Source of the DNA: Rhodothermales bacterium | Lineage (GTDB): Bacteria > Bacteroidota > Rhodothermia > Rhodothermales > Bin80 | Direction of reading: 5' to 3' | Assembly: GCA_965207565.1 (NCBI GenBank) | Contig: CBDBMQ010000024.1 | Location: 125,860 to 189,859 of the forward strand | Length of the DNA stretch: 64,000 nucleotides | Shown here: piece by piece, positions 15,768 to 57,623 of the stretch | How positions within the stretch are numbered: position 1 is the first letter of the stretch | How the letters are laid out: each line of letters begins with the position of its first letter | The notes under the pieces: model-generated | Databases searched by the model: none | What the model saw: the letters and a program-made list of their open reading frames with translations, nothing else | What the model was told of the DNA's origin: nothing | Program-made: the position numbers and the translations under genes

Positions 15768-16382
15768 GTAGAGTCAGGGGGCGGTGCGGTGCCCGTAGGG
15801 TCCGGTGGCTTATCCGTTGCTTTCGCTCCAGGCCTCAGTCCGGCTCCCTTAGGTCCGTTTCCGCCCCCTGCTCTCCGAACCGGGCGTGCGGTTTTCCCGC
15901 ACCCGGCTCTCCAGGTGGATCATGCGGCTCGTGCTCGGACCACCATACTCCGTTTCGTGATCTCCGTAATGCAGGGAAATGCCCCTTTCCCGCGAATATC
16001 ACGAACGTTGCATCGTGGGCTGGCTGGCCTGTTTACGCCCAGACAGCTCCGTCTCTTTGACGTCCCCTTCACTTGTGCATGTGCAGACGCCGGTCGCTCC
16101 GACGTGCTCCGGCTTCTATATCATTGCCGGCGCCCTTTGACCTTTTGTCTGCCCTCCTAAAACGCGGAGGGTCGGCACCCACATTACTAGTTTCGGGGCC
16201 TGCTCAACCTTCACTCGCGTTCCGGCCTGCATGCCTGCTGAATCGCCTACGCGATCCGTTTATCCAAAGTGCTTCAATTCATGTCGTTACCTCCATAAAT
16301 CGCTTTGGTCGCTTCCAACTGGAACGACAGTTATTGGGTGGGATTCGCACCCACCAGGAAAAAGCGCCTTTCCACGGCGCAC
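15768..16382 (-). mobile_element. ORF-less group II intron (about 615 nt), family 1
   Basis: Minus strand begins GTGCGCCGTGGAAAGGCGC (16382). It has a canonical domain V GAGCCGGGTGCGGGAAAACCGCACGCCCGGTTC (15877-15909) and ends ...GACTCTAC (15768). Homologous along its length to the ribozyme parts of 36425-38304. No RT ORF. Confidence 0.7.
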
Positions 16383-18101: not shown

Positions 18102-19890
18102 TTTCGATTTATTTTACATTTTTTCGAGAATCTGTCTCATTAAGTGATACTTACGGGATTTGTCGGCGAAATTTTTCGTTGAAATCTGTAATTTCCGCAC
18201 CGTTCTTTCTTGATTTTTTCATTCCACCGCCATGAGTTCTTCTGAACCTGAGGACAATTGGTGGAGCAATTCATTAGGCGGCGGCGGTTCTACGACTGGG
18301 GTCAAAGAGTGTCCGGTCGCGAAGCATCACACAGGCGATGGCCAAGAGTCGATCAGCAACGGATCGCAGAGCTCGGCCGTGGCTATGTCCTCGCTTACGT
18401 AGGGCATCGTACTTTGCTCTGCTGATGGGATCATGCTGAATGGCCACTCTGCTCCAGTGGTATACTGCATTACCCAAGCGGGCTTGGCAGGCTTTTCTTC
18501 GAACGACCTTCCACGATTTCCCAGAACGTTTCGTCACGGGTGCCACCCCACACAAACATCGTAGGGCTCGATAGTCTTGCTCACTGAGCAATCCATAGGC
18601 CTCCGAGATGAGCGCAGCCAGGACCGTTGGTCCCATGCCTGGAATGGATAACAGGATCTCCACATCGCTCAAGGGTTTTTCCTCGGAGGATGTTTTCTTC
18701 TCTTGGTTCAAAGCGCAGTTTGAAGTAGCTGGGCTCTGAGCATCGTTGAGCGAATCAAGGATCGTTTTCATGGCTTGTTTCGCTTCGCTGATCTGCCGTT
18801 CAAGCAGTTCAAGCTGCTGCAGATGAATTCGGATGCTGGCCGTTGCCGCCTCAACGACACCCGCTGCAACGCGGATGGGTTGGGTTCGCAGGTGGGTTAG
18901 AACCTGCTCCGCATTCAAACGCCGTATACGGTGTTTTTTCAGCACCTTTGTCACAGAACTAAGATGAACCCGGCGAGCACGCTTAGGCGTGAGAATGAGT
19001 TTCCAGAGGTCTCGGAGCGCTGGCGAATACAATGCAAACCCGAGCGTGAGGAACTGTGGGAAATAACGCCAGAATTGGGTTCGGATCTGGTGGGTGAGGC
19101 GAGTACGCTGGGTCGTCAGTTCCTGGTTCATCCGTGACCACTCACGCAGCTGGACAATCTTGGGATCCATTGGATTCAGTTCCCGAAAGCATCCTATATC
19201 AGTCCGGAGGGCATCGGCGATGACGCGGGCATCTCGGCGGTCATCTTTGGCCCCTGCCGGCGATAACCGATCTCGAAATCGGTCTGCTTGTTTGGGATTG
19301 ATGGAAAAGACGTGAAACCCTCGCTCCAACAGAGTGTCCACAACGGGACCGTGCGGAACCTCAATGCCGACTGCAATCTTATCTGCAGCGCAGCCTGCGC
19401 GGTCAAGGATCCAATCTGCCAGCTGTTGGAGGCCTTCTCCAGAATGAGAAAACACCTTCTCACCTAGAAGAATGCCCTCCAAGGTCAGGATGCAGACTTG
19501 GTGAAACTGAGAACCCCAGTCCGCACCAATAAAGATGGTGAATCTAGATTTTATAGACATGATTTGAGTATCTTTAAGGTTAGAAGATTGCGGGTCGCCG
19601 TGACGTTCCGTCTGTCCCTGTATCGGTGCTCAATGGCACTAACTCCCTACTGGACGTGGATCACGGTACTCCCTGGGGCACAGATCCGACTCAGGCGTTC
19701 AAGACGCAGGGGCGATTTGGTTGCTCCCAGGGAGTTACCCGCATTTACATGATGCAAAACAAAAGCTGTTGTTTTGTAAATCTAAAAAACCCGACCGTAT
19801 AGCAACTCAAAACATTCAGCTATACTGCCGATTTTTTATTTTATGATTTTACAAAATTGGACTCAGTTAAACATCACCTATAAGATACAG
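18080..19890 (-). mobile_element. IS110-family element (approximate bounds) inserted in the IS1380 transposase gene
   Basis: Lies between the two halves of the IS1380 ORF. No IRs, as expected for IS110. Confidence 0.6.
18274..19560 (-). CDS. IS110-family (DEDD) transposase/recombinase
   Basis: FIGADWGSQFHQVCIL N-terminus. C-terminal LLSIPGMGPTVLAALISE...CGVAPVTKRSGK...RLGNAVYHWSRVA is Transposase_20-type. Confidence 0.85.
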   Translation of the reverse strand: MSIKSRFTIFIGADWGSQFHQVCILTLEGILLGEKVFSHSGEGLQQLADWILDRAGCAADKIAVGIEVPHGPVVDTLLERGFHVFSINPKQADRFRDRLSPAGAKDDRRDARVIADALRTDIGCFRELNPMDPKIVQLREWSRMNQELTTQRTRLTHQIRTQFWRYFPQFLTLGFALYSPALRDLWKLILTPKRARRVHLSSVTKVLKKHRIRRLNAEQVLTHLRTQPIRVAAGVVEAATASIRIHLQQLELLERQISEAKQAMKTILDSLNDAQSPATSNCALNQEKKTSSEEKPLSDVEILLSIPGMGPTVLAALISEAYGLLSEQDYRALRCLCGVAPVTKRSGKSWKVVRRKACQARLGNAVYHWSRVAIQHDPISRAKYDALRKRGHSHGRALRSVADRLLAIACVMLRDRTLFDPSRRTAAA

Positions 19891-19900
19891 GGGTGATGGG

Positions 19901-36264: not shown

Positions 36265-36424
36265 GGTGGCGTTAATGCTGGAATTTGAGATCCCGTCGTC
36301 TAGAGCTGATTTTCCATCCCTATTAGGCATATGTCAGTGGCCTTGGACACACTGGATAAACAAGTACTTTATTCACGGGGAGATATCCCAAAAATACCGG
36401 TTTGCAGGTATCCCAGTTGGGAAT

Positions 36425-38304
36425 GTAGAGTCAAGGGGCCGGCGCGTTACTCTTAGGGTCCTGTGGCAATTCCATCGCTTTCGCTTTGGCCCTCAGTCAG
36501 GCTCCCGTCAGTCGTTTCCGGCCCCCTGCTCGTCAAACCGGACGTGCGGTTTTCCCGCATCCGAGAATCGCACATATCTCCCGATCCGTGTCTTATGCTT
36601 CCGGCAAAACCACTGTCGCAGCCGCTTGTTTGTGTGCATGTTGATCGCCTGATATGCGGGTGATACTTGGCCCAAAGTAAAGTAGTTCGCCCAACCGGAT
36701 ACCATCCAGTTCAGCCTCTGAACCATTTCCTCTGCGTCCAAGAACCCGTATTTCCGACTCGTTTGCTCACTGATCTTACGGCAGATACTTTGGACACTTG
36801 ACGTACTTGGACGGGTACCAATATAGCACCCTTGTCCGTTCGGTCGGTAGTTCCAACCGATGCGGTATCCGAGAAATTCAAACGGTTCCTCGGGGCATCG
36901 TAAGCATCGCGTCTTTTGGGTATTGAGTTTGAGCTTTAGCTTTTCCATCAGAACTTGTGCTACCGCCTTCATTTCTGTCGCCGGTACACGTCCCAAAATA
37001 CAGAAATCATCTGCATAGCAGACGATCTGTGCGTCAAAGCGTTCCGCATATCCCAAACGTTTCCACCCCAGAATAAAACGGCGCATATACAGATTACTTA
37101 ACAACGGCGAAACTGGACTGCCTTGCGGCGTCCCTTTTCGTTCTCTGCGGGCTCGATTTGTGCGGCGTTTGCCACCTTTGTCGTCCTCTTCTACTACGGG
37201 CATGACCAGCCATGACTTGATCAATCCAAGCACGCGTCCATCACTCACGCGACGGGCAATGCTCTTCATTAATTCCGCATGGGGAATCTCCCCGAAGTAG
37301 TTGGATAGGTCCGCATCAACCACTTCGTTGTGCCCCCTGCTTAGTAGTCTGTGGATGCGATTCACCGCATCCTACGCGCTTCGTCCTGGTCGGTACCCAT
37401 ATTGCTCCGGTTGCAGGTCCGCCTCAAATATCGGCGATAATACCAACATCGCCGATGTCTGAGCAACCCGATCTCGTAAGCATGGGATACCTAATGGTCG
37501 AAACTTACCCCGTGCTTTCTTGGGAATCAGCACCTGCCGAACCGCTTTCGGTTGATAAGTGCCGTCCCGTAGTTCCTGCGACAGTTCCCGCAGCCAGCTC
37601 TCCACGCCCCTTGCCTCAATGTCCGCAATCGTCTCCTCGTCCACTCCGGCCGATCCACCATTGCGGCGGACCAGACGCCAGGCTTCCCGTAAGAAGTCCA
37701 TGCGATACACCTTGTCCATCAGTGCGTGAAAGCGCCGCTGTGGTCCTTCCTTCGCTTGCTCATGCAGTATGGTCTGGAGTCCCTGAACCTTTTCAGATCC
37801 TGTTAGACCGTTGTCAGTAATCATGTCCCTTCATCCTTGTCCATACTACTTAACCTAGGGCCCCTTCCCTCCACAGGCGTTACCCCGCTTCTGCGGTACT
37901 ACGGCCCCATCCGTCACCCTGACGGCCCGACCTGCTCCTTACGGAGCTTCGGTTGCCGTGTGCATTGGCACCGACAGGGCTTCCCGTGTTGCTACTTTCC
38001 TGATCTTCCATGCGTGCCAGCGCCATTACCCCGGTGAGCCGCCTTGGTGCTCGCTTCCCAAGACGTGCCAGTCTTCCCCATATCACCGGAAGGTCAACAC
38101 TCACATTGCCCGTTTCGAGGCCTGATCGGCGTTCACTGCACGTTCCGGTCCACATGGTCGCTAAGCTACTCGCATAGCCCGTTAACCTTAATGCTTCATA
38201 TCATGTCGTTACCTCCATCATACGCTAAGGCCGCTACCAACCGGAGCGACAGGTGTTGGGCGGGGGTCGCACCCGCCACAGGAAAGCGCCTTTCCACGGC
38301 GCAC
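36425..38304 (-). mobile_element. Group II intron with RT/maturase ORF, family 1 (apparently inactive)
   Basis: Minus strand starts GTGCGCCGTGGAAAGGCGC (38304) and ends GACTCTAC (36425). Contains the RT ORF. Confidence 0.8.
36508..37824 (-). pseudogene. Group II intron reverse transcriptase/maturase with in-frame TAG
   Basis: RxxIPKxxGKFRPLGIP, YRPGRSA-TAG-DAV, PQGSPVSPLLSNLY, CYADDFCIL and maturase WANYF. The stop at 37372-37374 is in frame with both halves. Confidence 0.75.
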
Positions 38305-43367: not shown

Positions 43368-43642
43368 ATATTGGCCACACCATTGTGCCATGTAAGGGTT
43401 GCCTGCGGATCTGAGTACAAGGCAGAGTTAGCCTGGCGCACGGCAATTTGAATCTCAATATCCAGGATCCAGCTGCCCCCCACCCTGCCAATCATTCCCA
43501 ATCCCGAAACCACCTAACACTCCAGAACACCTTGTATGGACATTTTTCTGTGATCTGGTGTTATATTTGGGCAAACTGGTTGCAGTTTGTTCATAATAAC
43601 AGATTGGTGGTATACCCGCTCTAATCGATTCACCAGACAAAA

Positions 43643-44741: not shown

Positions 44742-45674
44742 ATGCTCCGCATTCCCTCTAAGGGACTCCAAAATTCCGTGAACAGACACAATTGCCGTAC
44801 GGATGTCTTGTCGGACTGGATTGAAGGTTCTGCCCTTTTCACTCAAACACGCATCTCTAAGGTCGACGTTCTGGACATGCTCCTTGAAGAACAGGTCTAT
44901 AGAAACGAGGACTTTGCCTGGGAGTTTATCCTCAACGTATGGGACGATTTACGGTATCGGGTAGAACATGGAAAAAATTGTGCGCTGCGCATTGATTTAG
45001 ACGGAGTAACCCCAGAAGGGCATTGGGAAAAATTCCCGGCATACTCATTTTGTCTTGCACTGGCTCTCCGGGATTGGTGCTCCTGTGGCGACAATTCCCA
45101 TCATGAGCAGGGTGAGTTGTTTGAGAGACTCACTGAGTGCTCTCTGGTCGCAAGAGGTTGGAGATCAAAGAGAACCGGTTGGGCTTCAAAAAATGCTGCC
45201 GGTCTGCCTAGATTGGTTGAAGAAATTTCGTCACACATTAAGGAGCCACTTGGGGGTAATATTGAAGAATGGCTCCCGTCCAGAGGCAAAGATGCCGGCT
45301 TGGACCTGATATGTGACCAACTATTTTCGGATGATCGTGGAGGCCGCCCGCTTTATTTTTTTCAGTGTGCTTCCGGTCGCCAGTGGAAGGACAAGACAAA
45401 TACTCCAGATCTTCAACTGTGGGCTAAACTCATTGATTTCTCGAACAGTCCGCTCCGCGGGTTTTCCCTCCCTTATGTTCTGTCAGAAAGGAGGGAGTTT
45501 CGGCGCGTGGCCAATAGCATAAACGGTATCCTAATTGACCGACTGAGACTTATTGCCCCTCTTGCCGGAGACAGCAACCAAGTTCCTTCCGAGCTTGAAT
45601 CCGATTTGAAAAATTGGCTAACCCCTCGAATAGAAGCTCTCACGTCTGAATCACATGTCAATCAAATTTATTGA
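44742..45674 (+). CDS. Unknown protein with a possible PD-(D/E)xK-like nuclease core
   Basis: GELFERL...GKDAGLDLICD...YFFQCASGRQWKDK. Its stop overlaps the dcm start by 20 nt. The function call is weak. Confidence 0.5.
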   Translation: MLRIPSKGLQNSVNRHNCRTDVLSDWIEGSALFTQTRISKVDVLDMLLEEQVYRNEDFAWEFILNVWDDLRYRVEHGKNCALRIDLDGVTPEGHWEKFPAYSFCLALALRDWCSCGDNSHHEQGELFERLTECSLVARGWRSKRTGWASKNAAGLPRLVEEISSHIKEPLGGNIEEWLPSRGKDAGLDLICDQLFSDDRGGRPLYFFQCASGRQWKDKTNTPDLQLWAKLIDFSNSPLRGFSLPYVLSERREFRRVANSINGILIDRLRLIAPLAGDSNQVPSELESDLKNWLTPRIEALTSESHVNQIY

Positions 45675-46949
45675 CTTATTTGCAGGACTGGGAGGGTTTC
45701 ACCAAGCCCTCAGACAGCGGGGGTCGGAATGTGTTTTTGCGTCAGAACTCAATCCCCAACTCGCAGACCTTTACAGGCAGAATTTCGGGATTTCACCCCA
45801 GGGAGACATCAGAAAGGTCAATCCTTCATCAATTCCAAATCACGATGTGCTGTGCGCCGGCTTTCCATGTCAACCTTTCTCCAAAGCAGGCAATCAAAAG
45901 GGACTGGAATGCCCGCAATGGGGTGACCTGTTCAGCTATATCGTCAAAATCTTAGAGGTCAAAAAACCTCGCTATTTCATTATTGAGAATGTCCCCAACC
46001 TTGTTCGGCACAATCACGGCAAAACTTGGGATACTATTTGCGATCAGCTTCGCGTGGATTATAATATCAGTTTTGAAAAGCTGTCCCCCCACATGTTCGG
46101 CATTCCGCAGAAGCGGGAACGTACTTTCATCGTAGGCGACCGACGAGGCTTGATAGGATTCAGGTGGCCTCTTCCAGATAAATTGCCTGAGCTATCGATC
46201 CGTACGGTTCTTGATGACAACCCCAAAGATGCCCTTGTTCTAAACGAAGACCACCTCAACTATCTTAGAACCTGGCAGGAGTTTATTTCGTCTTTCCCTG
46301 TAGATGAAGACCTCCCCTCTTTTCCGATTTGGGCAATGGAATTTGGTGCGGACTATCCAGTAGATGGGCCGACCCCACATAAAATGGGCTACACCCAGTT
46401 GGGGGAATTCAGGGGATCTTTTGGGCAGCCACTCAAGAACTTGCCTCCTGAGAATGTCGCAAAAGCTCTTCCCGTGTATGCCCGGACAAAGCAGGATACT
46501 TTTCCCCAGTGGAAGATTAGCTTCATCCAAAAGAATCGTGCTTTCTATTCCCGCTACCAAGAATTGATTGATGGCTGGCTTAACAAGGTTCAGGGGTTTC
46601 CCCCCCAGCTTCCAGAAACTTGAGTGGAACTGCAAGGGTGGTGAGCGGGACATCTGGAAGTATCTACTTCAGTTCCGAGCGAGCGGCATTCGCGTGAGAA
46701 GAACCGAAACTGCCCCGTCCCTTATTGCTATGACCACCAGCCAAGTGCCAATAATAGCATGGCAGAAACGTTACATGACCCCCCCGGGAATGTAGCCGCT
46801 TGCAAAGCATGGGGTCGTTGGGGAATCTCCCTGATTCAAAGGGTGGAGCGTACAGGGCCTTTGGTAATGCTGTAAATGTTGAGGTCGTTTTGAATATTTT
46901 CGATGCCCTGGTCAAACGACCAAGCTTCAGTGGCAGAGACTCCAATTAA
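45655..46949 (+). pseudogene. dcm: DNA (cytosine-5) methyltransferase with two +1 frameshifts
   Basis: Motif I DLFAGLGG, motif IV GFPCQPFS, motif [14 protein letters not shown] is in frame 2. RECSRLQS and GNAVNV are in frame 3. Removing one C from each C7 tract (46600-46606 and 46779-46785) gives one 430-aa ORF. Confidence 0.85.
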
Positions 46950-47205
46950 GCGCAGAAACTATTGTCACCGTCAGATCTGCTCCGCAACGATTTTCTTAAT
47001 GGTGTTTTCAACGGCGACCTCCCCCAGATTCTCCTCTATGTTCGCGAGATAGTGTCGACAGAATGCCAGATCAAGGGCCTCCATACCCAACTCAGTCCCA
47101 CGCTCCATCTGCTCAGGAGAGAGTTTGGATATTGAGATTCAAATTGCCCATCGCGGTAGGGACCCAGGTTTCCCTGGGCCCCCCGCACAGATCCGGACGT
47201 GCGCG

Positions 47206-48211
47206 TTAACGCATCCGGCTCCTCCCTTGGGTTACACTCGCGTGCATAACGGAAAATCGTCTCGCTGGCCAGTCGTGGCGTATTTTCAGCTTCGGCCAAT
47301 AACGCTGCGTTAGGGCCTCCACCTGCTCCCATGTTGTCCGATCCTTCTGGGACCGCCGACGTAGGACACAGAGCCAGGCCCATTTCAGGCACCTAAAACA
47401 TCTTCGTAGGTACGGGTAGCTCCATGGTACGGCGTAGTAGTTCAGCCAGCCATTCAGAACTTGCCCAAGCCATATGCCCGTGTCATGCACGCTTTGGTGC
47501 ATCCAGTGCCACAGCTCCTTACGAATTCGTTTTATGAAACGCGCCATACGCTTCGCGATTGGTTTACGGCCCAATCCGAATTTTCCTTTGCGGGTCTTAC
47601 GGCAGTAATGCGTAAATCCCAGAAAGTCAAAGGTCTTGGGCTTACCTTCTCCTCGGTTTCTACGGCGTTCGATCGCATCTCGACCGAATTCAATCAGTCG
47701 CGTTTTGTCGGGATGCAGACTCAATCCGAATTTCTCCAGTCGGGTCCGCAAGGCCAGTAGAAATTTCTCCGCCTCCTCCTTGTACTTTCCACAAAATCGT
47801 CCGCGTAACGAACGATATACGACTCCCCTACGATCTTGCGTGATTTGCGCTGGGACTTGAACCATAAGTCCAGCACGTAATGAAGATAGATGTTCGCCAG
47901 GATCGGCGAGATTACCGCGCCTTGCGGCGTACCCCGCTTACTCTCCCGCCAGTTTCCATTCTCCATTACCCCCGCTTTCAGGAATTTTGTGATGAGACGA
48001 AGTACCCGTTTGTCCGCGATCCGGTGTTCCAGGAAGCGGATTAACCACTCCTGTTCAACCATATCAAAGAACTTTCGGATGTCCGCATCAACCACATAGT
48101 TGACCCGTCGGCGTTCGATCACATATGCTAAGGCATCCAGACCGTTGTGGGCACTTCGGCCCGGCCTGAATCCATAGCTGAACCCGCAGAACTCCATCTC
48201 GTAGATGGGCT
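47206..48211 (-). pseudogene. Intron A reverse transcriptase, central and C-terminal parts (frameshift just after YADDF near 47795)
   Basis: EPIYEMEFCGFSYGFRPGRSAH, TPQGAVISPILANIYLH, RYADDFV, then in another frame KYKEEAEKFL...LHPDKTRLIEF...GWLNYY. Confidence 0.75.
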
Positions 48212-48857
48212 AGCGCGGTAGGGGCCCGGATTACTCCGGGCCCCCCGCACAGATCCGGACGTGCGCGTTAACGCATCCGGCTCCTCCCTTGGGTCGCACC
48301 ATCGTGCATAACGGCATGATTGCCGTAGCCGATTGATCCCATAGACTCACTGATCCATCTCTGTGTATGGCGTGAGTTCGGATCTCCCAGCTTCCCCTTG
48401 GGTGGGGACCTTCGCTCCAGCGACTCCGCAGGTCTCCCCTTGTTCGCCGCCTTCATCGCTACTATGTCCCCATCTGACTGCTCTATCCCGTGCATCACAG
48501 GCTTCAGCGTCTTCCGCCTTCCCTGCATGGTTCCAACTCTGCGTTTAGGACAGGATAGAGCCCTCCCAGGTCCCGACAAAATGCGTGCGTACGTCCGTGA
48601 GTTCTTAGACACCGTGGGCCTGTATGCCGCCTCACCATGGTAGTGACATACATGTTGCCTTCGACCTCTTGGACGACCTCGGCGACCCAAATAATAACAA
48701 TTTCGATGCTCAATAGCTCCGGCCATACGTACCTCTACCGACGCTTCGTCGTGATCCTCGCGGAGCACAACGCACGGCTCAAGGAAGTATGTGATTGGTT
48801 GCATCTTCATACTACGGGACTTTCACCCGCTACATTTTGCCAGTTAGCCTGGCGCAC
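48212..48857 (-). mobile_element. ORF-deleted group II intron B (646 nt) inserted inside the RT gene of intron A
   Basis: Starts GTGCGCCAGGCTAACTGGC (48857). Domain V at 48252-48283. Ends CCCTACCGCGCT (48212). Removing exactly these 646 nt restores ...VKYIL-E-PIYEMEF. Confidence 0.75.
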
Positions 48858-49347
48858 CCAAGATATATTTCACCATCGCATGCTGGACAATCTTGTCTTC
48901 CAGTGCTGCGATCCCGAGCGGTCGTGTGCCCCCATCAGGCTTCGGGATATTCACCCGCCTGCTGGGGGTCGCTCGAAACGATCCACGGTGTACGCGTGTA
49001 CAGAGATCCGCAAGGTTGCGGTCCAAGTTCTCGCTGTACGCCGCCCACGTCACTTGATCCACTCCCGGTGACGCATCTCGCTTTAGTGCGAAAAACGCCG
49101 CCCTCAGTGAGTCCTCATTGATGTGGTGCAAGAGCGTTGTAAGTTTCTCCTCTGGGTTCCGTCGTACGAATTCCCGTATCCGTTCCTTCCCTTGGTGCAC
49201 ACTTGCCCATTTCTGTGCATGGTGTGTGGTAGGATCTTGCGGATTCCCCTCGGGTAGAGGCCTTCGCTCCGACCGTTCCGCGGATGGTTCCTTGTTCACG
49301 GTCTTCCTCACTACTATGCCTCTATCTGACTTCTCCATCTCGTGCAT
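48858..49347 (-). pseudogene. Intron A reverse transcriptase, N-terminal part
   Basis: LLHHINEDSLRAAFFALKRDASPGVDQVTW...IPKPDGGTRPLGIAALEDKIVQHA. Confidence 0.75.
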
Positions 49348-49709
49348 CTTAGGCTTCGGCGTCTTCCGCCTTCTCTAAACGGCCCCGTACGACGGCAGGG
49401 CAAGATGGAGACCTCCCAGGTCCCAGCAAAGTGCGTACGTGCGTCCCTGAGTTCTCGGACACCGTGGGCCCATAGGTCCTCTCACCATAGCGATGACCTA
49501 CATGTTGCCTTCGACCATTTCCACGGCCTCGGCGACCCAGATGATGACCATTTCGATGCTCAATAGCTCCGGCCACACGCTCCGCTACCGACACTTCATC
49601 GGGACCCTCGCGGATCACTACGCACGGCTCGCGGAAATATGTGTTTCGGTTAAACTTCATATTACGGGACTTGCACCCGCTACACTTTGCCAGTTAGCCT
49701 GGCGTTCAC

Positions 49710-50347
49710 ATATCCATATTCACATTCTCAATTTGTTCCAACTGCGCTGGGATAAATCCCGCATACCAAGCCTGTAGACTCGATTTTGTCCGACCTTCAC
49801 GCACATTCAGAACCCTCCTCATTTTGGGATCCGATACAATGATCACATAATCATGCCGCTTACGAAAAGAGGTCTCATCCACGCAGATGTGGGTGGGAGA
49901 CAACTCCGCTCTTCGCGCAAGCCCCCGGTGTACCGCACGTTGCATGATCCCGTCAATGGTGTTCCATCTCACACCCATCAAACGGGCAACGGCGGAAACA
50001 CTCGTCTCCTTCAGCCAGTCAATCACCAATGCCTCATAGGCAAACGTTACCCCCGCATTCGTCGAGGCCCAGGGAACCGATACGGTCCGAACTCCATGAT
50101 CTGAACACTGCACACGCGCAACCTCTGCTACCACGAACGTACGATACTTCCGCGCGCGCCACCGACGAGGACGACGATCATACACGGAACAAACCTGATC
50201 ACACTTCGAACATCACAGCGTAGACGTGTCCATGCAAATAACATGAATCTCCACTTCTTTGGCCGCACGGTTCGTCGTCATCCGGGAAACCTCCCAGGGA
50301 GACTCGATGCCATATACCTGACTGATCTCTTTGATCTCGATCTTCAT
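49710..50347 (-). pseudogene. Second ISL3-family transposase. Only the N-terminal part remains; it is frameshifted and cut by intron A.
   Basis: MKIEIKEISQVYGIESPWEV...(frameshift)...VQCSDHGVRTVSVPWA...CVDETSFRKRHDYVIIV...NVNMDM. The intron then begins where the intact copy reads MDMWPAYI. Confidence 0.7.
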
Positions 50348-50610: not shown

Positions 50611-50661
50611 ATGTACTGCTACAGTAAGGTGATCTAATCTTTGACGCTTGGGAGGAATGTT

Positions 50662-51132
50662 ATGGATACACAAACTAGTGTGTTTGATGTAGCTGCATAT
50701 ATCTTAAAAAAATCAGGTCCCATGACGACATGGAAGCTTCAAAAGCTGGTATACTATTGCCAAGCATGGTCGCTTGTGTGGGATGGCGACCAGATGTTTG
50801 ATGACGAAATTGAAGCATGGGCCAACGGCCCGGTATGCAGAAAACTGTATGAGAAGCACAAGGGGCAATTCCGTATCGGTAAACTACCAATAGGGGATGC
50901 CAGTGTGTTGATGGAGAACCAGAGGGAAACTGTAGATGCAGTTTTACGAGATTATGGAAATAGATCACCAAAATGGTTAAGTGATCTAACCCACATGGAA
51001 GACCCATGGAAAAAGGCAAGAAGAGGTATCCCAAGGAGTGAAAGAGGTGAATCCGTTATCTCTAAAGAGTCTATGGCTGAATATTATGAGAGCCTACACG
51101 AAGAAGATGGTGCTTGGCTAAGTGAGTCCTAA
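50662..51132 (+). CDS. Panacea/DUF4065 (SocA/GepA-like) domain protein, putative antitoxin
   Basis: FDVAAYILKKSGPMTTWKLQKLVYYCQAWSLVW...EAWANGPVCRKLYEKHKG. GGGAGGA upstream. Confidence 0.8.
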   Translation: MDTQTSVFDVAAYILKKSGPMTTWKLQKLVYYCQAWSLVWDGDQMFDDEIEAWANGPVCRKLYEKHKGQFRIGKLPIGDASVLMENQRETVDAVLRDYGNRSPKWLSDLTHMEDPWKKARRGIPRSERGESVISKESMAEYYESLHEEDGAWLSES

Positions 51133-51628
51133 AAAGAGGGGACGTGCAGGACGACATAAGCAAGGAACAAAAAGATCGCTTGCCCAAAATGTACCTTCAG
51201 GAGATAAGCGGACCCATCGAGAAGGACAAAATAGTTTCCAACAAAAACCCGTCTGGTCTTTTGAGGTGTTAGATATAGAAGGACCATGGGGTTGGAATAA
51301 CGACAAGGTGACATCCATATTATGGACTGAAATAGTGCCCAAACTGCAAAGTTTTGAAACCATGACTTGGGGCGAAATAACTCAACAGGCAGGAGGACGC
51401 AAACATGGCAACAACCACCACTTCATAAGCGTTGAGGCTTTGACGCGTAAAGTACAAAAAAGACTGTCGGCGATCAGACAAGATGATATAGATGAGATTT
51501 TTTCTTTTAGGCTCAAAGCGAAAACACGCATTTATGGCCTTACAGAAGGTCAAGTGTTTAAATTACTTTGGTATGATCCCTTTCATGGCAACAACAGGGA
51601 GGCCGTAGTATCAGTGACGCAAAAATAA
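51122..51628 (+). CDS. Unknown 168-aa protein overlapping the Panacea gene end, candidate toxin partner
   Basis: GTG start overlaps the upstream stop by 11 nt. Very basic N-terminus. Conserved-looking ...FSFRLKAKTRIYGLTEGQVFKLLWYDPFH. Confidence 0.5.
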   Translation: MSPKKRGRAGRHKQGTKRSLAQNVPSGDKRTHREGQNSFQQKPVWSFEVLDIEGPWGWNNDKVTSILWTEIVPKLQSFETMTWGEITQQAGGRKHGNNHHFISVEALTRKVQKRLSAIRQDDIDEIFSFRLKAKTRIYGLTEGQVFKLLWYDPFHGNNREAVVSVTQK

Positions 51629-52151
51629 CCTTATACCTAGTCCCTTTTCCAATCAACTACTTCTTATCCTCTACCCTCAACATTCACGGTAGAACCGCAA
51701 AGTTTACTATTGATCAGTATGCTTAACCCACGTTCACCTCGTATGCTCCCGATATTTGTAGTATTTCCACTACCTGCTTTATCACTGGAAATTCTCCATT
51801 CCTCCTGCACAAAAACCCTAACATCGTCAAAATGCATATTCCGACCATGTGGGACACTGACTCCGAGCCATGCAGGCCCTTCTATAGTGAATTTCTGCTA
51901 TGACGGGCGGCCAACGCGACGGCCATCATTGCCACAAATTAGAGCGGGCTTGGGCCTGAGAGAGATTGGGGACAATCGGAGATCCTTCCAGGTGAAGTGT
52001 TTCCGGCAACCGTGCCGCACCTTCAACAGGCTTCGCCGCACTGTGAAATCAAATTCCCGAAGAAAAAACCCAAACCAGTCCGGAGATTCAGTCTCGCCCT
52101 GCATTTTGCTTAAACTGTAACAGAAAGTGCACTTCTAAATGCCGCCGTCGC

Positions 52152-52508
52152 GTGTACCACAGGAAACCATCCATCTACACGCGAATGCTACTTCATCGAA
52201 TACGACTCTTGTCTTCTGCGGCCGTGATCGGATCTGTCATGGTTCTGCTCCCCGTCCTTGTCGATGCCAGCGGTGTCGGAGGGGTCAGGGTCGCAACCTC
52301 CACGGTATCCAAGATCGTTGGGCTGCTCACCGGTGATCTGGCCACGGCTGCATTCCTCTTGATCATTGTTCTGGGCGGTCTCGCCTGGTGGGTGACCCGC
52401 TCCAGCCGTGCCGGCGAAATCCTCGGCCGAACCGTGATGGGGGCCGTAATCATCTTTGGAGCCGTCCAGATCAGTGAGTTCTTTTCCTTCCAGGGCGCCG
52501 TCATCTGA
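52152..52508 (+). CDS. trbC: TrbC/VirB2-family pilin-like protein
   Basis: Signal-like N-terminus plus two hydrophobic helices. First gene of a trb-ordered block. The start may be an internal Met. Confidence 0.6.
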   Translation: MYHRKPSIYTRMLLHRIRLLSSAAVIGSVMVLLPVLVDASGVGGVRVATSTVSKIVGLLTGDLATAAFLLIIVLGGLAWWVTRSSRAGEILGRTVMGAVIIFGAVQISEFFSFQGAVI

Positions 52509-52837
52509 TGGAAAGCACCCGTGAAGCATTAGAGACGGCTCCCGTGCATACATCCCTTCAGCGTCGCCCCACCATGGGCGGCCTGCCACAGGATGCATTC
52601 CTGTTATTGGCGCTGATCATGATCACGATGGGGATTGCCTCACGCCTGGACCCGAAAGTCCTGGCAGGATGTGGGTTGGCATATTTAGTCCTATTGCCGC
52701 TGCTTCGAAGGGTATTCGAAAAAGATCCGTTCTTCATGGTGGTGGTACCGCGAGCTTTGAGGTATACCCCACACTATCTGAGGCAGGAAAAAGAGGTCAC
52801 GCGTCACTGGCGTGATCGTTCAACAAAAACGCGCTGA
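52508..52837 (+). CDS. trbD: TrbD/VirB3-family protein
   Basis: About 109 aa with two TM segments. Stop/start overlaps with neighbours (ATGA junctions). Confidence 0.6.
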   Translation: MESTREALETAPVHTSLQRRPTMGGLPQDAFLLLALIMITMGIASRLDPKVLAGCGLAYLVLLPLLRRVFEKDPFFMVVVPRALRYTPHYLRQEKEVTRHWRDRSTKTR

Positions 52838-55260
52838 TGGATCCATTGACATTTGGAATCGGCACAGCTACCGGTGCCGGGACAGTTTGGGCGATCAATC
52901 GATTACAGCACCTAAAAAGGCCGGCCGAAGGACTTGGGGACCTTCTGGGCTGGGCATTCCTGATTGACGAAGGAGTCATTCTCATGAAAGACGGATCGTT
53001 TGTGAGTGGATTTGAACTTGATCCTCCTGATCTGGAAACGACCAGCGCAGCAGAAGCAAACAGCACAACCGATACCGTTCACGATATGCTGATGCTTCTG
53101 GGGGAAGGATATGGGATTGAAGTGAATGTGCATCGAAGGCACAGCACCGAGTACCCGATCCAGGAGAATCATCACTTTCCAACCGCCTCCCTGCAAACCA
53201 TGGAGCATGAGCGGCAAAGACAATACCAGGAGGTCGGAAGCCATTATACCCTCAGGCGCACCGTTCTTTTTACGTACACCCCACCGCGTGATCTTTGGTC
53301 ACGATGGGAAGTTCCCATGGTTCAAGGGGCTCAAAAGGAATTTGATTACGCGCAGATCCTGTCTGGCTTCAACCGCACCTTAAATGAAGTTCGTGCACTG
53401 CTGACCGGACGGTTTCAAGTGACTCCACTAAGCAGCAGTGGACTTTTAACCGAATGTCATTGTGCACTCACCGGCCAGAATGAACAAGTGGTGTCTCTTC
53501 CGAGCAGTTATCTGAGTCACACACTTGCCTCCGACGATTTTCAGACGGGATTTTACCCGGTGATCGGAGGGCAGCATCTGTTTGTGGTCACGATTGCTTC
53601 ACTCGGAATGCAGACACGGGTGGGAGATGGCGCATTCTTTCATCGTATTGAGGGCGAGGGTCGCTGGCATATGCGATTCATCGGCATGGATCGCCATACA
53701 GCCGGACGTCGCATCAAGCGACTGCAAACCAGCTGGTTCCATCAACGACGCGGACTGCGAAAACTGATCGCGCCCGAGGAGGATGGGTTTGAAGATCAGG
53801 ATGCCGTGGCCATGCAACACGAAACTGCCTCCGCACATGCGGAATCTGCCAGCGGCCGCGTCCGATTTGGGTACTTCACGAATACCTTCATCCTGCGTGA
53901 CCGGCAAATGCAACATGGCCTGGCACGCAGCCAGACGCTTTTACAGGTTTTACGGGACCAGGGGTATACCTGCGCTTTGGAAACGATCAATGCGACCGAT
54001 GCCTTCATCGGGACGCTTCCTGGTCATGGCTATGCCAATCTTCGTCGCCCCCTTTTGTCCAGTCGCAATATTGCACATTTATTTCCGGTTTCCGCGCCAT
54101 GGAAAGGAAATTCAACCTGCCCCAACCCCATGTTCCCGGATGGTAGCCCTGCACTGGCCTGCGCACGAACGCCAAGTGGTGCGCCCTTTATGGTGAACCT
54201 GTATCAAGAAGATGTGGGACACACACTCGTGATCGGAGCGACCGGTGCAGGCAAGAGTGTCCTCGTTGGATGGCTGGCACTCAATTTTTTGCGTTATCCA
54301 AAGAGCCGCGTCCATGTCTTTGATATCGGACGATCTCATCAGATCCCCTGCATGGCTGCAGATGGAGTTCACTTTTCATTTGGAGATGCAAATCCGCTGC
54401 AGCCCCTTCGCCATATTCACGAGGAAACCGAGAGGTTGTGGGCATTAACCTGGCTGGAAACGATCTATGACCTTTCAGGCGAGTTGCCGGATGCAGACGG
54501 GCGCCTGGCACTTGCAGATACACTCGATCTGCTTTGTCAATCATCACCAGAACACCGAACCCTGTCCGCACTTCATCTCCTGTTGCCACAGACTCTGCAG
54601 AGCACGGTAGTGCGGTATACGGCAGACGGACCCTATGGCCGACTCTTTGACGGGGATCAAGGGGCGGAAGCGTCAGCACGTATGCATGTCTATGAATTAG
54701 GGCAAATACTCGACCAGGGAGATGCGGTTGTGGTTCCCTTGCTTCTGGCATTGTTTCGATCCATCGAACGCACACTGGACGGGTCCCCGACGCTGATTGT
54801 GATTGAGGAGGCCTGGGCCGCTCTTCTGCGGTCCCGTTTTGCGGAGCGGATCAAAGCCTGGCTTCTGACACTCAGAAAACATAATGCATCCGTTCTTCTG
54901 GTCGCTCATTCACCATCCCAGATTGCCGCCCTCCCCAATGCAGCTCTGATTACGGAGTCATGCCCAACGAAAATTATCCTCCCGAACCCGGAGGCACGGA
55001 CAGAGGAGGGTGCGGCGATGCACCGGGCACTGGATCTGAGCATGCGCGCAATCCATGTGGTAGCCTCCGCAAAACCCAAGCGAGAGTATTTCTATAAGAG
55101 CCCGGCGAGAAGCCGGCTCTTCGAACTGAATCTCGGGCCGATTGCACGCACGCTGCTCATGCCGCTACCCGGCATGAGCGGGGAAGCCTCCCGCAGTCGC
55201 ATTCAAGAAGCCTTTCATCATCACGGACACGATTTCCTTCACCATATCACGTACTCATGA
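52837..55260 (+). CDS. trbE: TrbE/VirB4-family conjugal transfer ATPase
   Basis: 807 aa. Walker A GATGAGKS and Walker B-like LIVIEEAW. Confidence 0.85.
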   Translation: MDPLTFGIGTATGAGTVWAINRLQHLKRPAEGLGDLLGWAFLIDEGVILMKDGSFVSGFELDPPDLETTSAAEANSTTDTVHDMLMLLGEGYGIEVNVHRRHSTEYPIQENHHFPTASLQTMEHERQRQYQEVGSHYTLRRTVLFTYTPPRDLWSRWEVPMVQGAQKEFDYAQILSGFNRTLNEVRALLTGRFQVTPLSSSGLLTECHCALTGQNEQVVSLPSSYLSHTLASDDFQTGFYPVIGGQHLFVVTIASLGMQTRVGDGAFFHRIEGEGRWHMRFIGMDRHTAGRRIKRLQTSWFHQRRGLRKLIAPEEDGFEDQDAVAMQHETASAHAESASGRVRFGYFTNTFILRDRQMQHGLARSQTLLQVLRDQGYTCALETINATDAFIGTLPGHGYANLRRPLLSSRNIAHLFPVSAPWKGNSTCPNPMFPDGSPALACARTPSGAPFMVNLYQEDVGHTLVIGATGAGKSVLVGWLALNFLRYPKSRVHVFDIGRSHQIPCMAADGVHFSFGDANPLQPLRHIHEETERLWALTWLETIYDLSGELPDADGRLALADTLDLLCQSSPEHRTLSALHLLLPQTLQSTVVRYTADGPYGRLFDGDQGAEASARMHVYELGQILDQGDAVVVPLLLALFRSIERTLDGSPTLIVIEEAWAALLRSRFAERIKAWLLTLRKHNASVLLVAHSPSQIAALPNAALITESCPTKIILPNPEARTEEGAAMHRALDLSMRAIHVVASAKPKREYFYKSPARSRLFELNLGPIARTLLMPLPGMSGEASRSRIQEAFHHHGHDFLHHITYS

Positions 55261-56000
55261 AACGTTTATTCTTATTGATTCTGCTTCTTGGGAGTGCGAC
55301 CGGAAGCCGGGCGCAACTCCCTGTCGTTGATGTAGCCGTTCTGGCAGAAACCATCACAACCGTCGCCGAACTTCGCCGACAGGTGAACCTGCTCTTAAAA
55401 GAAGTCGCACTGTCCACAGAAATCAAACAGAACACCAAGACGCACTTGTACAGGTATGAGCGCGCCCTGTCAAAACGTGGCCTCATTCCGACCGAAGCAC
55501 TCGGAACCTATGTTCGGAAGATCAGGCAGGCACATAAGACTACTGGCGGTATGACCTGGGAGGACCCGGAAGTATTTCGGGGGACCTTTTTGATGTATCA
55601 GGATCCGCCGGATCCTCTAGCAGCCCAGAAGGCTGCGCATGAACAAACGATGGCGACGCTCCAGGGGACGCTCGCATCGCTGCAGGTTCATAATCACTCC
55701 GTTGATCAGGCACATGAAGAATTGGAGCACTTGAAGCAAGAAATCGTGCATGCCAAAGAGCCTCAAGAGATGCGTGATGTACAGGCGAACCTTCAGGTTG
55801 TGCATGCCCGCGAACTATTGCTCACCCGGCAGGCATTTATGACGCTGGTCAATCTGGAAGCAGTCCGAGCTGCTGAAGCGGTCAGTCAAAAGGCACAGCA
55901 GCGCATGCGCTATGACGCGTTCGTGGGAAATGCTGAATGGTTGGGAGATCCCACCCGTTATGATGTGAAGCGCTTCTTGAAAATGCCCGAAACTCCATAG
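55257..56000 (+). CDS. trbJ: TrbJ (VirB5-like) P-type conjugative transfer protein
   Basis: Signal peptide, then QLPVVDVAVLAETITTVAELRRQV and a coiled-coil. Position is after trbE. Confidence 0.65.
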   Translation: MKRLFLLILLLGSATGSRAQLPVVDVAVLAETITTVAELRRQVNLLLKEVALSTEIKQNTKTHLYRYERALSKRGLIPTEALGTYVRKIRQAHKTTGGMTWEDPEVFRGTFLMYQDPPDPLAAQKAAHEQTMATLQGTLASLQVHNHSVDQAHEELEHLKQEIVHAKEPQEMRDVQANLQVVHARELLLTRQAFMTLVNLEAVRAAEAVSQKAQQRMRYDAFVGNAEWLGDPTRYDVKRFLKMPETP

Positions 56001-56049
56001 CAGGTGCTAAAACGCATCAAAACGGAGCGACCCCCAGTAATCCAATTGC

Positions 56050-56958
56050 ATGCAAGCGCAACAAGCCATACAGAACTGTGCACCCACGATGTTTTTCGAT
56101 TGTGCACAGGAAATTTTTCGACTGACCACAGAGGCTTGGCTGACCCGTGCGCTGGATGCAGCACAGACACTCTTTCTCAGTTTGGCACTCTTGGAGATTG
56201 TGGTAACCGGCTATATGGTTTGGGCCGGGCGCAGGAAGCAGGGCGGAGACCTCATCAGCCAGTTTACGTTCAAGATTGGCCTATTGGCCTTCGTACTCGG
56301 ACTCTTATCCACCTATCACAGATGGTTGCCCATGATCGCACAGGGGTTCGGGGAAACCGCCGTCTATATCGGCGGCAGTGACGTCTCACACCTATCCCCC
56401 ACCCACCTCTTGAATGTTGGGCTGAGCATGCTGCTCAGCGTCATGCAATCCGTAGGGTTGACCTCTGATCTTGTGACTTCCCTGGCCGTGATTCCGGCAC
56501 TCATCATGCTGCTGTGCTTCGTTGCACTCGCAGCACATCTACTTGTGACGATGATTGAGAGCTATGTGGTCGTCACGGGCGGACTCTTCTTCATCGGTTT
56601 TATGGCATTTCGTGGAACGGCTCCTCTTGGCGAAGGATATCTGAAGTATGTGGTCTATGTCGGAGTCAAACTGTTTTTCATTATTCTGATCGCAGGGGTT
56701 GCCGCCTCAATCGGGGACGATATGGTAGCACTCTTGCAGTCGTACGATAATCTGTGGCTGACAGCTTTCGAGCAGCTATTCTCCCAAAATCCCGGCGGCG
56801 TTGCAGGTGCGGTGTCTTCCCGACTGGGGTTTCTGTGGTCCATGACGGCTGTGGCCATCTTGTTGGCCGGCCTGGGGCTTCACATGCCTGGACGGATTGC
56901 GACGCAGCTGAGCAGTGGTCTGACGGTTAATTTCAAGCGTGCACTGGAGAACCTGTAA
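56050..56958 (+). CDS. trbL: TrbL/VirB6-family membrane protein
   Basis: Polytopic membrane protein in the expected position. Confidence 0.6.
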   Translation: MQAQQAIQNCAPTMFFDCAQEIFRLTTEAWLTRALDAAQTLFLSLALLEIVVTGYMVWAGRRKQGGDLISQFTFKIGLLAFVLGLLSTYHRWLPMIAQGFGETAVYIGGSDVSHLSPTHLLNVGLSMLLSVMQSVGLTSDLVTSLAVIPALIMLLCFVALAAHLLVTMIESYVVVTGGLFFIGFMAFRGTAPLGEGYLKYVVYVGVKLFFIILIAGVAASIGDDMVALLQSYDNLWLTAFEQLFSQNPGGVAGAVSSRLGFLWSMTAVAILLAGLGLHMPGRIATQLSSGLTVNFKRALENL

Positions 56959-56960
56959 TC

Positions 56961-57623
56961 ATGGCAAAGGAAGGCCATCCGTATCTGGAGGGCAGGTATG
57001 CATTTGAGCGGCTCTTTGGTGACCTTGCCCGAGGTAGACGCTCCTGGCAGTCCGTTGCTTTTCTTGCACTGCTGCTGAATCTCGTGCTCACTGCAGGGTA
57101 TATCCATCTGGCTTCGCAGCACAAGGTGGTCCCGTATGTGGTGGAACTGGATGCGCTGGGTGAGATGCGCGCAGCGGGCAAACTATCGGTGCGCGATGTG
57201 CCGGAGCGAGCAATCACCGCTACGCTGCGCAGGTTTGTGCACAACTTACGAACGGTTCCTACCGATGCACGCCTCTTGAATGTACGGTTACAGGATGCAC
57301 GTACGCATGTGCATGGCCGCGCCGCAAAGACACTGGTGACGGACCTGGATCGTGACCGGGAAAATCTGGAACGCATGCTTGAGCGTGGGGACACCCGTTA
57401 TGTGACCGAAATCAGCAGCGTTCTAAAGGTACCCGGTGAAGGGATCCTGTACCGGGTATCTTGGCGAGAACTACTCCGGGTTGGACATGAGGAGCGCACC
57501 TCGGCGTACGAGGGGCATTTTCAGGTTCGGGTTGAATCTCCAGAAGATGAAGAAGCACTGGACAGTAATCCACTTGGCATCTACATCATGGACTATGCAT
57601 TGACCGAGGTGAGCACGCTCTAA
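56961..57623 (+). CDS. trbF: TrbF (VirB8-like) conjugal transfer protein
   Basis: PYLEGRYAFERLFGDLARGRRSWQ, one TM segment, then a VirB8-like domain. Confidence 0.7.
   Translation: MAKEGHPYLEGRYAFERLFGDLARGRRSWQSVAFLALLLNLVLTAGYIHLASQHKVVPYVVELDALGEMRAAGKLSVRDVPERAITATLRRFVHNLRTVPTDARLLNVRLQDARTHVHGRAAKTLVTDLDRDRENLERMLERGDTRYVTEISSVLKVPGEGILYRVSWRELLRVGHEERTSAYEGHFQVRVESPEDEEALDSNPLGIYIMDYALTEVSTL

Follow-up and report, generated by a model that had tools for sequence, protein, structure and literature searches.

How does a group II intron that has lost its own reverse transcriptase (RT) come to lie within the RT gene of one of its relatives? This question was raised by a 64,000-nt stretch of a Rhodothermales bacterium assembly (GCA_965207565.1, contig CBDBMQ010000024.1, positions 125,860 to 189,859), referred to here as the window, in which an RT-encoding group II intron (the outer intron, A) appeared to be interrupted by a shorter one (the inner intron, B). 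All introns A and B and their exon features lie on the minus strand of the window (Table 1), and loci in other assemblies are cited by L number. The original prediction had proposed a bacterial twintron, in which an intron deleted for its open reading frame (ORF) occupies the RT gene of its own relative, and every test that we ran agreed with it. Most probably, B belongs to a non-autonomous lineage that depends on an A-type RT and retrohomes to sites matching its exon-binding sites (EBS) 1 and 3, including one in the RT gene of its helper, while the outer copy in the window is a fossil.

The insertion is precise. Joining position 48858 to 48211 gives ..GTG AAA TAT ATC TTG G|AG CCC ATC.. in one frame, and the translation across the rejoined site reads ...VKYIL-E-PIYEMEFCGFSYGFRPGRSAH, that is, ..VKYILEPIYEMEFCGFSYGFRPGRSAH... 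The boundaries on which the prediction had staked its case, 48212 and 48857, thus restore the RT frame when exactly this segment is excised. The site falls between motifs 2 and 3 of the RT (..VK[Y/C]IL|EPIYE..), ~165 codons from its start, and is found empty, with no gap, in a metagenome contig that is 96.8% identical to A nt 621-1912 (L016) and in ~20 copies in the Rhodothermales metagenome-assembled genome (MAG) OZ220707.1. The inner intron is complete and lies wholly within the outer one, and its removal restores the outer sequence, as is the case in a twintron. Because the site is in domain IV (DIV) of A, B leaves the ribozyme of A undisturbed yet splits the RT ORF.

B itself, 646 nt long as predicted, retains both ends and matches the ribozyme model for domains I-IV. 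As terminus criterion for group II introns we took 5' GUGYG and 3' AY; B starts GUGCGCC, the GUGCG of which fits, and its 3' terminus is ..CUACCGCGCU (also written ..CCCCUACCGCGCU). The Rfam model RF02005 (group-II-D1D4-6, cut-off 49 bits) matched A and B end to end, both at 157 bits (B 157.4), and in a local 3-kb search RF00029 (DV/DVI, cut-off 40 bits) scored 39.3 bits for A (E 1.5e-5) and 36.4 bits for B (E 8e-5). Aligned with A from which B had been removed, B showed 79% identity over nt 4-503 (E 1e-95) and 89% between nt 544-644 and the last ~100 nt of A. The DV sequence is identical among A, B and a MAG B copy, and the likeness of 5' part, DV and 3' end that had been noticed by eye was thereby substantiated. 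When the introns were folded, the consensus of seven divergent copies contained 113 pairs, 21 of them with compensatory changes, and B kept canonical pairs at 110 of the 113 (DI-DIII); its predicted fold has the DV hairpin and a DVI with a bulged UA, the A of which lies 8 nt from the 3' end. Judged from its sequence, the ribozyme of B appears intact.

What B has lost is the RT. It retains ~140 nt of DIV homologous to A, including the start-codon region, and its RT ORF is reduced, as had been claimed, to an in-frame fusion of ~47 N-terminal codons, a short linker and the C-terminal end. Beyond this 75-codon remnant no RT coding capacity is left in B, and a 180-aa ORF spanning B had zero Pfam matches. 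A MAG copy has the same fusion, with 8 of the 75 residues different; there is therefore no sign of selection on the peptide, and the constraint on the remnant probably acts at the RNA level, on DIVa and on the stretch that overlaps DV.

Does the site in the RT gene correspond to what B would recognize? We assigned EBS1 and EBS3 by covariation across independent copies. The loop of a hairpin at intron nt ~186-191 changes together with the end of the 5' exon in at least eight loop/exon combinations and was for that reason identified as EBS1, the partner of intron-binding site (IBS) 1 (EBS1/IBS1 GUUACA/UGUAAC in nested A-types of the MAG; GAUACU/AGUAUU or UGUAUU in MAG A-types at simple sites; GGCAAU/UUUGCC in L007; GGUAAU/AUUGCC in the outer intron of L026; ACAAUG/(A/U)UUGU in L017-22; CCAUGU/GCAUGG in L012, on the minus strand; CCAAGU/CUUGG in MAG B-types). 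By the same reasoning the nucleotide after CCCACGGUGUC is EBS3, since it covaries with the first base of the 3' exon: the two form U:A in all copies of B and C:G in A-types, and G:C is seen in the L026 outer intron, in L007 and in L017-20. In the window, EBS1 of B forms six of six Watson-Crick pairs with the end of the upstream RT codons (CCAAGA:UCUUGG), its EBS3-IBS3 pair is U:A and is satisfied at the RT site, and TCTTGGA occurs a single time on the sense strand of A. The derivation that had been suggested for the two insertion sites thus showed EBS1 and EBS3 of B paired with the RT site and EBS1 of A mismatched with its 5' exon. A δ-δ' (IIA-type) pairing beside EBS1 was considered and rejected, the base 5' of EBS1 being U in all copies, with no covariation with position +1.

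B is not confined to this site. Our search for further mini-introns found B-type copies in L003, L004, L008, L009, L010, L025, L026 and L027, at ..(C/U)UGG|A sites, most of them unrelated ..CUUGG|A sites. Four copies from different assemblies (the window, L026, L027 and L003) are each exactly 646 nt long, with the same ORF deletion and 93-99% mutual identity, compared with about 80% at most to any A-type ribozyme. By these sequence comparisons B is an older, size-conserved ORF-less lineage, not a recent deletion product of the A copy in the window.

The same nesting, at the same RT codon, was present in L026, a 142-kb scaffold from an unrelated metagenome (ERZ23492359), where A nt 6-852 are followed by B nt 1-646 and then by A nt 853-1914, with junctions ..GTGTATCCTGG|GTGCGCC and ..CCGCGCT|AGCCCATTTATGAG. 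The outer intron of L026 occupies a different genomic site with cognate exon pairings, and after removal of B its RT ORF runs uninterrupted from start codon to stop codon. The inner introns of L026 and the window are 97.5% identical, and the outer ones 86% (5' part) and 80% (3' part). Among the 16 differences between the two B copies, two fall in EBS1, and one of these compensates the change in the target: the L026 EBS1, CUAGGA, forms five Watson-Crick pairs and one G-U pair with UCCUGG. Near-identical inner introns in diverged outer introns served as the argument for independent insertions in the twintrons of Thermosynechococcus elongatus (PMC2882425), and the Methanosarcina pattern, closely related inner introns at the same site of diverged outer copies, is seen here in two cases. 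Given this and the EBS1 change that matches the target, we take the RT site to be one to which B homes recurrently, from two cases only. Had the composite arisen once and spread as a unit, the shared site would reflect descent; composite mobility was held possible for the T. elongatus twintrons (PMC2882425), and the MAG has composites, B with A inside, each of which seems to have been carried as a whole to different sites. A single ancient insertion is nonetheless unlikely, because divergence is 2.5% between the inner introns and 14-20% between the outer ones, the two EBS1 changes follow the two target variants, and the site is empty in close relatives of both outer introns.

The L026 example also bears on whether the assembler mis-joined one A and one B copy. 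In favour of a mis-join, ~500 nt are common to the two introns at 79% identity and ~100 nt at 89%, and sister short-read assemblies break within this intron. A mis-join would however be expected in shared sequence, and both junctions lie in a part of the RT ORF to which B has no homologous sequence. Furthermore, no part of the termini of B is missing, the outer frame is recovered exactly, the site pairs with EBS1 and EBS3 of B, and the identical nesting recurs in an independent scaffold from a different sample. With the junctions outside the shared sequence and an independent example at hand, assembly chimerism is very unlikely.

Is the outer intron in the window still active? A measures 2558 nt with B and 1912 nt without it. 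With B removed and the frameshift repaired by hand, its RT is a 499-aa product that matches Pfam RVT_1 (E 2e-36) and in which the Pfam search detected no endonuclease domain. The repaired protein is 88-90% identical to the multi-copy RTs of MAG OZ220707.1, and its PDB relatives are all distant, the nearest being group II intron RTs at E 1e-42 or weaker. The original prediction had placed A at 47150-49709. The nesting within this span stood, and the 5' end had to be moved by 2 nt: a start at 49709 (GTGAACG) was ruled out by the sister assemblies L023 and L024 (96-98% identical to the window over 49.3-57.3 kb), which read ..ATGGATATGT|GUGCGCC, that is, ..ATGGATATGT|GTGCGCCAGG, at this junction, and by the frame of intact ISL3 homologues, which continue ..SMDMWPAY (ATG TGG). 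The exon therefore ends ..ATGT and A begins GAACGCC at 49707, as MAG A-type copies likewise do. At its 3' end, ..CUACCGCGAU, the next base is G, which pairs with the C of EBS3.

The frameshift predicted just after YADDF, at ~47795, also proved real, and its position was corrected to 47787-47788, with a net loss of 7 nt. The lesion (GTGG-AA-AGTA) was seen in 12 of 29 copy sightings and in two sequence backgrounds; the window copy has it in common with about half of the MAG copies (loci L001, L002, L004, L008-L011, L013 and L014). Being present in many copies, it was inherited or spread by conversion and is not private to the A copy in the window, and its distribution points to an RT-defective sub-lineage that is still multiplying or to gene conversion among copies residing in one genome. 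We considered whether a -1 ribosomal frameshift at A AAU UUC could make good the lesion and rejected this, as the heptamer is not conserved in lesion-bearing MAG copies, which read GAAGUUUC.

The exons of A tell of further damage. Whereas the intron at the sister locus has an EBS1 (ACCUAUU) that pairs with the exon GAUAUGU at six of seven positions, EBS1 of A in the window is mismatched. The two introns differ almost only at nt 2-3, at one hairpin tip and in the EBS2 and EBS1 loops, which suggests a patchy exchange with another copy after A had inserted. The 5' exon matches Pfam HTH_Tnp_ISL3 and DDE_Tnp_ISL3, and its homologues continue WPAY; no remainder of the transposase (DDE) was present downstream of A, and we rejected on this ground that A is a simple insertion in an intact ISL3 gene. 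Because of the RT frameshift, the EBS1 mismatch and a 3' exon without transposase remainder, A in the window appears to be a dead relic, and the twintron as a whole is unlikely to be spliced to give joined exons.

These lesions also speak against a working regulatory twintron in the window, in which B would be excised first and sequential splicing would gate expression of the RT of A. Sequential twintron splicing has been demonstrated in Trichodesmium (PMC4649490), and the L026 outer intron, with an RT ORF intact after removal of B and a cognate exon context, is the kind of locus where such gating could be pictured. In the window, the RT of A is still frameshifted after removal of B, its EBS1 is unpaired with the 5' exon, and its exons consist of a truncated transposase on one side and an unrelated repeat on the other, so that we give this explanation very little chance.

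Table 1. Positions of the twintron components, pairing elements and flanking exon features in the window
Feature	Position	Strand	Basis or remark
5' exon of A, N-terminal 159 codons of ISL3-family transposase, broken at ..NMDM|W	49708..50185	-	
Outer intron A	47150..49707	-	RF02005 157 bits, RF00029 39.3 bits; 5' end from L023/L024 and ISL3 frame
EBS1 loop of A, GGAAAU	49517..49522	-	not complementary to 5' exon ..GGAUAUGU
RT ORF of A, N-terminal part to B insertion	48858..49347 (ATG at 49347)	-	
IBS1 for B, UCUUGG, last 6 nt of upstream RT codons (..ATC TTG G)	48858..48863	-	
Inner ORF-less intron B, complete DI-DIII, shortened DIV, DV, DVI	48212..48857 (646 nt)	-	
EBS1 of B, CCAAGA (B nt 186-191)	48667..48672	-	loop/exon covariation
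EBS3 of B, U (B nt 251)	48607	-	nucleotide after CCCACGGUGUC
RT-ORF remnant of B, in-frame 75-codon fusion in DIV running into DV	48268..48495	-	
IBS3 for B, A, first base of downstream RT codons (..G|AG CCC)	48211	-	
RT ORF of A, B insertion to YADDFV	47789..48211	-	
-7-nt lesion, AA replacing TGTGTTTTG, shifts RT frame	47787..47788	-	compared with L016, L006, L007, L017-22
RT C-terminal part of A, RT6-7 and thumb/X region, shifted frame	47206..47786	-	stop codon in DV loop
3' flank of A, 23 nt, not transposase, inverted copy of 43442-43464	47126..47148	-	
Third intron copy, 16-nt 5' stub (GUGCGCCAGGCUAACU)	43426..43441	-	behind cognate-looking exon ..CAAAUUGCC|

How, then, would B have reached the RT gene? 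Reverse splicing followed by copying into DNA is the standard retrohoming route of group II introns without endonuclease (PMC4424553), and from the comparisons above we infer that B was mobilized in trans along such a route. An A-type RT made elsewhere in the genome would bind B RNA, which would reverse-splice into single- or double-stranded DNA at IBS1|IBS3 and then be copied to DNA. Its targets, of consensus ..CUUGG|A, would be chosen by EBS1 and EBS3 pairing, and one of them would be in the RT gene of the helper family. In the window, B would have entered an A copy residing in a truncated ISL3 transposase gene, in a region resembling a conjugative element; this A copy would then have had its EBS1 and EBS2 loops and nt 2-3 exchanged with another copy and its 3' exon replaced. 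At loci of the L026 type, production of the RT would need prior excision of B.

Several observations weigh against this account. No intact A-type RT is encoded in the 64-kb window, and a helper elsewhere in the genome is assumed. EBS2-IBS2 of B has no firm assignment, two short registers being candidates. The RF00029 scores for DV/DVI are slightly under Rfam's curated cut-off, and B terminates in CU rather than the usual AY; the same CU is found in L025, L026 and the RT-intact L007. The exact junction of B with the RT and a B-specific 25-mer both had 0 matches in exact-pattern scans of JGI metagenome contigs, and splicing as well as physical linkage in the source DNA are predicted from the assembled sequence.

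A stronger version of the account would make B a dedicated hyperparasite of A-type introns, with the two lineages locked in a target-site arms race. B would retune its EBS1 as the RT codons drift (CCAAGA/UCUUGG in the window, CUAGGA/UCCUGG in L026), RT expression at L026-like loci would depend on B splicing, A-types may escape by synonymous change (~20 MAG copies with an unoccupied UCUUAG, where B with CCAAGU is abundant), and A would in turn home into nt 29/30 of B and build tandem arrays. We regard such an arms race as a tentative and rather doubtful possibility. In the MAG, all of the ~20 A copies read ATCTTAG|AGCCC at the RT site (e.g. L003 3475, L008 3359), a synonymous Leu codon that breaks the -2 pairing with EBS1 CCAAGU of the resident B, and none of these RT sites is occupied, despite the abundance of B. 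The unoccupied UCUUAG sites could be a case of target-site escape.

The MAG also holds the reverse nesting. B-type mini-introns there carry full-length A-types with EBS1 GUUACA between their nt 29 and 30 (..AAAAUGUAAC|GAACGCC..), at L003, L004, L008, L009, L010, L011 and L001/L002 of OZ220707.1 and at L012 (4555-4605). The nested A-types are often arranged head-to-tail, in three to four or more copies with the exact junction ..CCGCGAU|GAACGCC; no head-to-tail A array occurs in the window. Tandem integration has been described for the EcKTE56.groEL intron, where the 5' exon is unchanged after the first insertion and G1 of the resident intron serves as the next IBS3 (PMC12584367). The MAG arrays are explained in the same way, since the target regenerates at the 5' junction, EBS3 being C here and G1 being G; template switching or rolling-circle cDNA, considered as alternative sources of the arrays, are needless where target regeneration suffices (PMC12584367). 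As in EcKTE56.groEL, the copies are head-to-tail with the resident G1 as IBS3; unlike that experimental system of two copies (PMC12584367), the MAG arrays are natural, comprise three to four or more full-length copies and lie inside a mini-intron. Upstream of the A array of L004, the 29-nt 5' piece of the B-type host intron shows a poly-A expansion (GGCAAAAAAAAAAAATGTAAC, 700-725), which could be a long-read homopolymer error or real slippage.

The intron 5' ends vary as well: A-types start GAACG and MAG B-types GAGCG, as against GUGCG (window 49707; MAG copies in L001-L011). Where G3 has become A, a C in GAAGCGUCGG (alignment A1, column 116) has become U as well, and the pair may represent compensation of the ε-ε' type, with a single evolutionary event seen.

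A second intron family in the window has its own short form. The family 1 copy at 15768-16382, predicted to be an ORF-less derivative, has Rfam D1D4-4 and DV/DVI matches and resembles the full copy (~38304..36417) at its 5' end (76%) and 3' end (80%), in line with the prediction. The RT of the full-length family 1 intron (~36417-38304, minus strand, Rfam D1D4-4) is interrupted by an in-frame stop (..YGYRPGRSA*DAV..); with the frameshift in A, both RT-encoding introns in the window are therefore defective.

Around the twintron, perfect 23-bp inverted repeats (GGCAATTTGAATCTCAATATCCA; 43442-43464 and 47126-47148) bound a 3.7-kb segment containing a C5 DNA methylase (45655-46623) and two ORFs without Pfam matches. 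One repeat arm abuts the 3' end of A and the other the 16-nt intron stub, and introns of the GGCAAU/GGUAAU sublineage (L007, L026) have the complement of the repeat (..GAGATTCAAATTGCC|) as their cognate 5' exon. On the other side, positions 50641-57260 carry a SocA/Panacea antitoxin-like gene and a set of type IV secretion and conjugation genes (VirB4-like, 807 aa; TrbC, TrbL and VirB8 by synteny with L023), so that the intron cluster borders on a conjugative element; over 7.9 kb, L023 shows 97.7% identity to the window. The 5' flank of the L026 twintron shares 96% identity with an IS110-family transposase element of the window (18274-19893, minus strand, and 1260-1540), and the L026 outer intron follows the N-terminal ~69 codons of that transposase gene; the last ~33 nt before that intron are not common to the IS110 copy of the window. 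An exact-protein look-up returned no record of the junction ORF (..VKYILGAPG), the 180-aa ORF of B, the RT fragment, the methylase or the 807-aa VirB4-like protein.

Arrangements of this kind are already known, and the window provides a further example from a different intron lineage and host group (Rhodothermales-like). ORF-less relatives in the ORF region of RT-encoding introns were described in T. elongatus (PMC2882425), and twintrons have also been noted in Wolbachia and Trichodesmium (PMC8919778, PMC4649490). A close likeness is to TeI3-in-TeI4 of T. elongatus: there too RT-encoding relatives harbour, in their ORF region, an ORF-less derivative lineage of the same intron family, the inner introns have diverged far less than the outer ones, the intron-encoded proteins lack an endonuclease domain, and the family also targets insertion sequence elements, with flanking exons that are not housekeeping genes (PMC2882425). 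TeI3, however, is located between the first two ATGs of the ORF, so that the RT can still be made from the second ATG (PMC2882425), whereas the window site, ~165 codons into the RT, splits it, in an intron of Rfam D1D4-6 type and a Rhodothermales-like host. Trans-mobilization was demonstrated experimentally in T. elongatus (PMC2882425); for B it is proposed from sequence comparison.

In Methanosarcina acetivorans (Dai & Zimmerly 2003, RNA 9:14, as summarized in PMC4424553 and PMC2882425), ORF-less and RT-encoding introns likewise home site-specifically into related group II introns or the ORFs of these, and the flanks hold no coding exons of consequence. That archaeal system has up to five nested layers and the window has one; the related MAG, unlike M. 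acetivorans as there described, has the reverse nesting, with A arrays inside B. The twintron of Trichodesmium erythraeum is, like ours, a bacterial group II twintron, with sequential splicing as the expected order (PMC4649490). Its host is a conserved protein-coding gene, and splicing was demonstrated in vivo (PMC4649490), in contrast to the window twintron, which sits in mobile-element debris and whose outer intron looks dead.

Bacterial twintrons are rare, and a non-autonomous intron that targets the RT gene of its own helper is known from very few lineages. No concept is changed by the present case. What it adds is a natural pair of nestings with a compensatory change of EBS1 and target, and a sister genome with the reverse nesting and natural head-to-tail arrays. 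For annotation, split "RT fragments" in these genomes can represent one RT gene interrupted by a mini-intron. Together, these introns offer a compact system for the mutual parasitism and constraint of autonomous and non-autonomous retroelements, and for the origin of intron-in-intron structures.

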